Assembly (NCBI RefSeq): GCF_003991155.1
Contig: NZ_CP031293.1
Length of the DNA stretch: 64,000 nt
DNA from: Escherichia coli
GTDB lineage: Bacteria; Pseudomonadota; Gammaproteobacteria; Enterobacterales; Enterobacteriaceae
Reading direction: 5' to 3' (one strand)
Shown here: positions 29,430-29,901 of the stretch, piece after piece
How the letters are laid out: every line of letters starts with the position of its first letter
How positions within the stretch are numbered: position 1 is the stretch's first letter
The notes under the pieces: model-generated
The model's input: only the letters and a program-made list of their open reading frames with translations
Told to the model about the DNA's origin: nothing
The model's database searches: none
Translations under genes and position numbers: made by a program

Positions 29430-29901
29430 TGCATCTCCAGAAATCATGAAGGAAACGTCGTTCATATCGGTGGTGTTAATTACAGATATCACGCCCTTTA
29501 ATTTGGAAATAAAACTTTAATCACCAATATTGAAAATGTCACACGCAGATAAATCCAACTTTCAATATTGTTAAGCTCCTCACCAATATTGAAAACATGG
29601 CGTAGCAAAAAGAAATTTTCAATATTGTTTTATGGATCACCAATATTGAAAGTCAGATGCTATTTTTTTACTCACAATCAAACTCATCACATTGATAAAC
29701 AATGAATATTTACACAAAAACGCCCTGTTTTTACCCGATAAAAAACTGTGACTAACATCACAGAACGCAGCCAATTGAATACCCATTATGAGTTAGCCAT
29801 TAACGCGTCCACGAGGTTAATAATAATTATATTAAATGTTAACAAAAATAAAACAAACGGGAACGCAAAATAAATATTCGTTTTCACAGTGGAATTAACT
29901 C
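29430..29901. promoter_or_regulatory. cai–fix divergent control region with reiterated CAATATTG operator half-sites
   Basis: TCACCAATATTGAAA at 29521, 29580 and 29637, with TTTCAATATTGTT at 29560 and 29617; AT-rich; consistent with CaiF/CRP/FNR-controlled divergent promoters. Confidence 0.75.

Follow-up and report, generated by a model that had tools for sequence, protein, structure and literature searches.

The fixA–caiT intergenic region carries five copies of one short motif

Which of the repeated elements between the divergent fixABCX and caiTABCDE genes of Escherichia coli are contacts for the regulator CaiF, and do they work together as one array? The question was raised by a first-pass annotation of the window (the whole stretch of 64,000 nucleotides that was analysed), which described five regularly phased half-sites in this region and suggested co-operative binding of a regulator on one face of the DNA. 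The genes needed to follow the analysis are:

28659–29429, minus strand: fixA, ATG at 29429; first gene of fixABCX
29902–31416, plus strand: caiT, ATG at 29902; first gene of caiTABCDE
37171–37566, minus strand: caiF, an open reading frame of 131 aa encoding the operator-binding regulator

The repeats sit in the 472-bp intergenic region between fixA and caiT. When the sequence was read, TCACCAATATTGAAA was present at 29521, 29580 and 29637, at intervals of 59 and 57 bp, and TTTCAATATTGTT at 29560 and 29617, so the positions given in the first-pass annotation were exact to the base. Its placement of the repeats in the cai–fix divergent control region was also borne out, as fixA on the minus strand and caiT on the plus strand flank them and the locus aligns with the annotated K-12 caiF-caiEDCBAT / fixABCX locus. 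All five sites are identical in K-12, and the intergenic region is 100% identical to that of several sequenced strains. The cognate caiF gene lies within the window. Its product matches Pfam PF07180 (CaiF_GrlA) with 28.5 bits, above the cut-off of 25, and the GrlA chain 4kt5_C with E = 0.001.

The core of the motif, CAATATTG, starts at 29525, 29563, 29584, 29620 and 29641 in the intergenic region. It occurs seven times in the 64-kb window compared with 1.34 copies expected by shuffling, and none of 100 shuffles reached seven; five of the seven copies fall inside 124 bp. The 11-mer CAATATTGAAA is present exactly five times in the window, three times on the plus strand and twice on the minus strand, always between fixA and caiT. 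A repeat search returned the three direct copies as one family (D1, spacing 59 and 57 bp) together with two perfect 11-nt inverted repeats, I6 with a gap of 13 nt and I5 with a gap of 24 nt. Tandem Repeats Finder reported no array for the repeat region. The sequence between the motifs is no more alike than its shuffles (11 of 24 positions match where shuffling gives 11.2 on average, and 6 of 13 where it gives 4.9), and thus only the motifs are repeated. The repetition is confined to the motifs and does not extend to a whole tandem unit. A tandem array or a mobile repeat element was rejected on these two results and because the window holds no other exact copy of the 11-mer.

Further candidates were tried for the same stretch of DNA. 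An RNA role of the repeats was rejected, as the best Rfam match was a yeast snoRNA with E = 0.42, far below threshold. The repeats lie between the two inferred divergent transcription starts and are therefore probably untranscribed from either promoter. An N-terminal extension of fixA from the in-frame GTG at 29492 would add 21 codons, giving 277 aa in the list of open reading frames compared with the annotated 256; it was rejected because the indels found in other genera are not multiples of three. A one-mismatch copy of the motif, CAATATCGAAA, is located at 37458–37468 within the caiF coding sequence. About 1.5 such copies are expected by chance in the window, and this one is probably not meaningful.

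Four copies form the two known CaiF operators

Four of the five copies pair up as two 35-bp palindromes of the form TTTCAATATTG-N13-CAATATTGAAA, centred at 29577 and 29634, and one copy is left without a partner:

29521–29535, plus strand: unpaired fix-proximal half-site TCACCAATATTGAAA; 11-mer CAATATTGAAA at 29525–29535, without a partner 13 bp away
29560–29594: fix-proximal CaiF operator; TTTCAATATTG at 29560–29570, 13 bp, CAATATTGAAA at 29584–29594; identical in K-12
29617–29651: cai-proximal CaiF operator; TTTCAATATTG at 29617–29627, 13 bp, CAATATTGAAA at 29641–29651

The published CaiF operators F1 and F2 (Buchet et al. 1998/1999) are quoted in PMC12083890 and PMC3680233 as perfect 11-bp inverted half-sites with 13 bp between them, and exactly this sequence is present twice in the window. 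The four paired copies come from the same organism and locus as F1 and F2 of the E. coli cai-fix region and have the same sequence, without any difference. They are the known operators F1 and F2, and this part is already published. The match also settles the identity of the regulator that the first-pass annotation had proposed, CaiF, as far as the operator quoted in these two papers goes. Both papers, citing the primary work, give binding of CaiF to F1 and F2 in E. coli; protection or a shift by purified CaiF is reported for E. coli in the work that they cite. According to published work in E. coli, CaiF responds to crotonobetainyl-CoA, an intermediate of the carnitine pathway, and together with cAMP-CRP activates both divergent promoters.

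At its core the finding reproduces what has been published, and taken alone it changes nothing. The new points are modest: an unpaired half-site conserved in 20 genera and situated inside the predicted fix core promoter, an operator number that varies by genus, and a natural deletion of one 59-bp unit. The comparison with the published operators accounts for four of the five copies; the unpaired fifth falls outside the operator definition as it is quoted in PMC12083890 and PMC3680233. Its 11-mer at 29525–29535 has its nearest opposite-sense copy at a distance of 24 bp, not 13 bp.

Instead of five regularly phased half-sites, the region therefore contains two 35-bp palindromes and one unpaired copy. 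The distances from core to core alternate between 38, 21, 36 and 21 bp, and only 21 bp corresponds to a whole number of helical turns (2.0), whereas 36, 38, 57 and 59 bp correspond to 3.4, 3.6, 5.4 and 5.6 turns. Since the cores of one operator are 21 bp, i.e. two turns, apart, both face the same side of the DNA. Periods of 57 and 59 bp put successive units on roughly opposite faces, so the one-face phasing that had been read into these periods does not hold. The two halves of one operator are on the same side, and successive operators are not.

A TCAC flank (29521–29524, 29580–29583 and 29637–29640) is invariant beside every plus-oriented copy in all species and missing from the minus-oriented copies. 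Because it accompanies the plus-oriented copies only, the operators are not truly symmetric. Inside the operators this flank could be explained by an overlap with CRP; the unpaired site is not open to that explanation.

CRP-like sequences and predicted promoters

We scored the window against the CRP consensus TGTGA-N6-TCACA and the FNR consensus TTGAT-N4-ATCAA, with 10 positions each, and combined these scores with a promoter scan and a multi-genus alignment. The resulting features are:

29508–29515: conserved block AATAAAAC, which spans the inferred fix start; distance to the unpaired half-site 5 bp
29514–29542, minus strand: predicted fix core promoter, GTGACA (29542–29537), 17 bp, TAAAGT (29519–29514), from the promoter scan
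29569–29584: CRP-like TGTTAagctccTCACC in the fix-proximal operator, 8/10; centre 29576.5, i.e. −69.5 from the inferred fix start
29626–29641: weaker CRP-like TGTTTtatggaTCACC in the cai-proximal operator, 7/10; centre 29633.5, i.e. −126.5 from the inferred fix start
29747–29762: consensus CRP/FNR-type site TGTGActaacaTCACA, 10/10; centre at −41.5 relative to the inferred cai start (29796)
29784–29789, plus strand: probable cai −10 hexamer CATTAT; start inferred at G 29796

CRP scores of at least 8 were reached at only 19 of the approximately 64,000 positions of the window. The sole 10/10 match in the window is the site at 29747–29762, which is conserved across genera within an otherwise hypervariable patch. 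FNR-like matches are located at 29668–29705 and 29748–29761, and no FNR match of at least 7/10 overlaps any of the five repeats. The first-pass annotation had named CRP/FNR-type factors as possible binders of the repeats. This is supported in part, as CRP-like sequences are found inside both operators, and in part not supported, since CAATATTG itself is neither a CRP nor an FNR motif. A scan also flagged a terminator-like hairpin at 29746–29763. It consists of the palindromic CRP site with a T run on the minus strand and was rejected as an implausible terminator.

The fix start was placed near 29507 from the promoter scan together with published relative positions. On the cai side, the conserved island GAATACCCATTATGAGTTA in alignment A3 led us to assign CATTAT as the probable −10 hexamer and to place the start at G 29796, at a distance of 41.5 bp from the perfect match to the CRP consensus. 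A −41.5 site has been described for the cai promoter (PMC3680233), and the RegulonDB v8 paper states that the two CRP sites of fixAp are positioned as in acsP2 (PMC3531196). The tandem CRP sites of acsP2 are at −69.5 and −122.5, and fix likewise has CRP-like sites at −69.5 and −126.5 from its inferred start. Unlike in acsP2, the CRP-like sites of fix are weak matches (8/10 and 7/10), each of them lying within a CaiF palindrome. The inferred fix and cai starts are 289 bp apart. A 1998 abstract from Buchet reportedly gives the same distance of 289 bp between the starts, and it is said to describe a cis element of about 50 bp which overlaps the fix mRNA start and is needed for cai transcription. 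If this is right, the 50-bp element would include the single site.

In the predicted fix promoter the unpaired copy occupies −28 to −18 relative to the inferred start and fills the −35/−10 spacer. The GTGACA-17-TAAAGT geometry is found only in the Escherichia–Citrobacter–Salmonella–Phytobacter group. An alternative promoter drawn from conserved blocks, TTCAAT-17-TATTT(C/T), places the unpaired site at −36 to −26, and in other genera a −10 candidate further downstream places it at −65 to −55. The block next to the site, AATAAAAC, hardly changes between Escherichia and Providencia and takes the form AATAATAC in Edwardsiella and Hafnia. Both this block and the TCAC flank could reflect another factor or contacts of RNA polymerase rather than CaiF.

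Operator number varies between genera

caiT loci were fetched from 80 species, fixA was located and the motif mapped, and 48 loci were tabulated. They fall into four layouts:

Single site and two operators (+ − + − +): 24 loci; Escherichia, Citrobacter, Salmonella, Pseudocitrobacter, Phytobacter, Intestinirhabdus
Single site and three operators with an exact 59-bp period: 8 loci; Proteus
Single site and one operator: 7 loci; Pluralibacter, Yokenella, Atlantibacter, Trabulsiella and two further Enterobacteriaceae
Single site alone, without palindrome: 9 loci; Edwardsiella, Hafnia, Serratia H1w, Leminorella, Limnobaculum

The number of operators is therefore 0, 1, 2 or 3 depending on the genus, and the number of half-site copies ranges from 1 to 7. 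The cai-proximal operator is restricted to the Escherichia–Citrobacter–Salmonella–Phytobacter group, with an altered form in Proteus and Providencia. Three genera stand outside the clean classes. Providencia has the single site and one good operator, with a degenerate operator in between; Budvicia has two direct copies 27 bp apart; and Entomohabitans shows one operator, with no single site that could be recognised. The seven half-sites of Proteus (L027–L034 and L046) are spread from about 95 to 285 bp from the fixA ATG. Upstream of caiT the motif was absent in Campylobacter, Shewanella, Ferrimonas and other non-Enterobacterales, and no other regulator gene was found between fixA and caiT in Shewanella or Ferrimonas. 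A tblastn search for caiF in the fetched loci, whose flanks are too short, gave no match. Outside E. coli, the co-occurrence of the motif with caiF is taken from the literature for Proteus and Edwardsiella, the latter having been reported to possess caiF.

A difference of the same kind was detected within E. coli. In strain ETEC1722 (L083, NZ_CP122844.1, 2400–2620) the intergenic region is 59 bp shorter, corresponding to 29521–29579 of the window. In the alignment, 59 bp are cleanly deleted between the TCACCAATATTGAAA direct repeats at 29521 and 29580, which leaves the single site and one operator, the layout seen in Pluralibacter or Yokenella. ETEC1722 is a living example of the loss or gain of a unit that would yield the differences between genera.

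The unpaired half-site is the best conserved copy

The fifth copy is kept in all 48 tabulated species loci, from 20 genera, with at most one mismatch in the core. TCAC, CAATATTG and AA are each retained in 46–48 of the 48 loci, and the left arms of the operators, which have no TCAC flank, vary more. Judged from these alignments, the fifth copy is the best conserved of the five. In a multi-genus alignment, conservation is strongest in two blocks, one being the single site and the other the right arm of the first operator. In the 39 loci that have the single site and at least one clean operator (14 genera), the core of the fifth copy starts 82–129 bp from the fixA ATG, and in 37 of the 39 this distance is 93–99 bp. 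In Edwardsiella, Hafnia, Serratia H1w, Leminorella and Limnobaculum the single site is the sole copy. As the sequence between the motifs has diverged to a random level in the window, it is selection and not recent duplication that keeps the copies.

This conservation and position suggest that CaiF makes a functional contact at the fifth copy, close to the promoter, and that this contact is probably the ancestral one. Searches of the literature for fixAp/caiTp and for the motif strings gave no further description of the region; Buchet 1998/1999 may already describe or dismiss the fifth copy.

Comparison with GrlA and MerR-type activators

GrlA is a homologue of CaiF. According to Islam et al. 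2011 (cited in PMC10877973, PMC4856446 and PMC4730234), it activates the LEE1 P1 promoter of EHEC and EPEC by binding in the −35/−10 spacer. The two proteins belong to one Pfam family, PF07180. The GrlA target is in the LEE1 P1 spacer, and the unpaired CaiF half-site would lie in the corresponding spacer of fix if its promoter is the predicted one. We confirmed the LEE1 P1 sequence upstream of ler as TTGACA-TTTAATGATAATGTATTT-TACACA. Its spacer is 18 bp long and has no dyad, and the predicted fix spacer is 17 bp. A likeness in sequence between the LEE1 P1 spacer and the CaiF half-site was looked for by eye and none was convincing, so the parallel with GrlA is positional only. At 17 bp, the predicted fix spacer is shorter than the over-long spacers (at least 18 bp) of GrlA-like or MerR-like activation. 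CaiF is outside the MerR family of spacer-binding activators, whose targets have spacers of 19–20 bp and a dyad-symmetric site; fix, in contrast, has 17 bp and a single half-site.

How CaiF may act at the divergent promoters

Taken together, the repeats very probably represent the CaiF-responsive control region of the divergent fixABCX and caiTABCDE genes, made up of two CaiF operators with co-activation by CRP and of a fifth copy that we infer to be a promoter-proximal, ancestral contact. In line with the published work on E. coli, CaiF activated via crotonobetainyl-CoA binds each 35-bp palindrome, probably as a dimer. With the CRP-like sequence in the middle of each operator and the consensus CRP site at −41.5 of cai, CaiF and cAMP-CRP co-activate both promoters, and the fifth copy would offer CaiF a contact inside the predicted fix core promoter. 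Palindromic operators may have been added upstream in units of 57–59 bp and occasionally lost.

A bolder proposal, which we find conceivable and put forward only tentatively, is that the ancestral contact of CaiF, and the one it cannot do without, is the unpaired half-site and not the published palindromes. Activation would then come directly from a CaiF subunit bound inside the fix core promoter, in the spacer or the −35 region, as with GrlA at LEE1 P1, and the upstream operators would be accessory modules, gained and lost in 57–59 bp units and present in 0 to 3 copies.

Several other explanations were weighed against the CaiF control region. What speaks for a single co-operative array of five equivalent half-sites on one DNA face, the model of the first-pass annotation, is that the five 11-mers are identical and that the direct repeats follow one another at rather even intervals (59 and 57 bp here, an exact 59 bp in Proteus). 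We give this model little credence, because 5.4 and 5.6 turns are non-integral, the core distances are in phase only at 21 bp, the published unit is an N13 palindrome, the copy number changes from 1 to 7 between genera and the flanks vary with orientation. It is highly improbable that the repeats are sites of CRP or FNR and not of CaiF. Binding of CaiF to the motif is published, and the conserved repeated element, CAATATTGAA, fits neither consensus. A CRP-like TGTnA-N6-TCAC does overlap both operators in a region that is reportedly under CRP and FNR control, but its left half differs by genus (TGTTA, TGCTA, TGCCA) whereas CAATATTG is constant, and the single site has TAAAA in place of a CRP-like left half.

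The remaining two explanations concern the fifth copy. It might be a functionless remnant of the duplication that made the operators, with whose right arms it shares the 15-bp sequence, and the 59-bp deletion in ETEC1722 shows that direct repeats recombine at this locus. Against this, it is the best conserved copy, retained in 48 of 48 tabulated loci and standing alone in genera without an operator, and the neighbouring sequence has diverged freely; we regard this origin as very unlikely. A regulator bound in the spacer could equally repress, and the position of the fifth copy between the predicted −35 and −10, at an optimal spacing of 17 bp, is the classic one for a repressor. CaiF bound there might limit or repress fix in competition with RNA polymerase for the core promoter. 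This seems unlikely to us, given that CaiF is known only as an activator, that the fix promoter serves as a CaiF-activated biosensor, and that the family precedent for spacer binding, GrlA, is one of activation.

In the model as it stands, CaiF acts through two palindromic sites located 70 and 127 bp upstream of fix, at a distance of over 160 bp from cai. The CaiF-type element with the strongest conservation, in the predicted fix core promoter, is missing from it. If functional, this fifth element would account for the access of a small winged-helix activator to RNA polymerase and would connect the mechanism of CaiF with that of the virulence regulator GrlA. The element would then also be relevant to engineering the fix promoter as a carnitine biosensor.

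Further features of the intergenic region

Between the operators and the cai promoter, positions 29672–29775 form a hypervariable patch of about 100 bp, in which approximately one third of the positions differ from K-12, against none in the flanks. The patch takes a different form in every Escherichia lineage, with TTGAT, the CRP site and the −10 region as conserved islands. The intergenic version of the window was found at 99% identity or more in 304 of 5391 E. coli genomes, and 4734 genomes fall into the 90–95% band. In the early fix leader, a block at 29482–29491 (A....TA.CA) is kept from Escherichia to Providencia and is recognisable as AATCATGGTATTTCTATT in Edwardsiella and Hafnia. Two AT-rich sequences resemble the ArcA box: TGTTAATTACA at 29474–29484 in the fix leader, and GTTAATAATAATTATATTAAATGTTAACA at 29816–29845 in the cai leader, near the ArcA positions +28/+50 quoted in PMC3680233.
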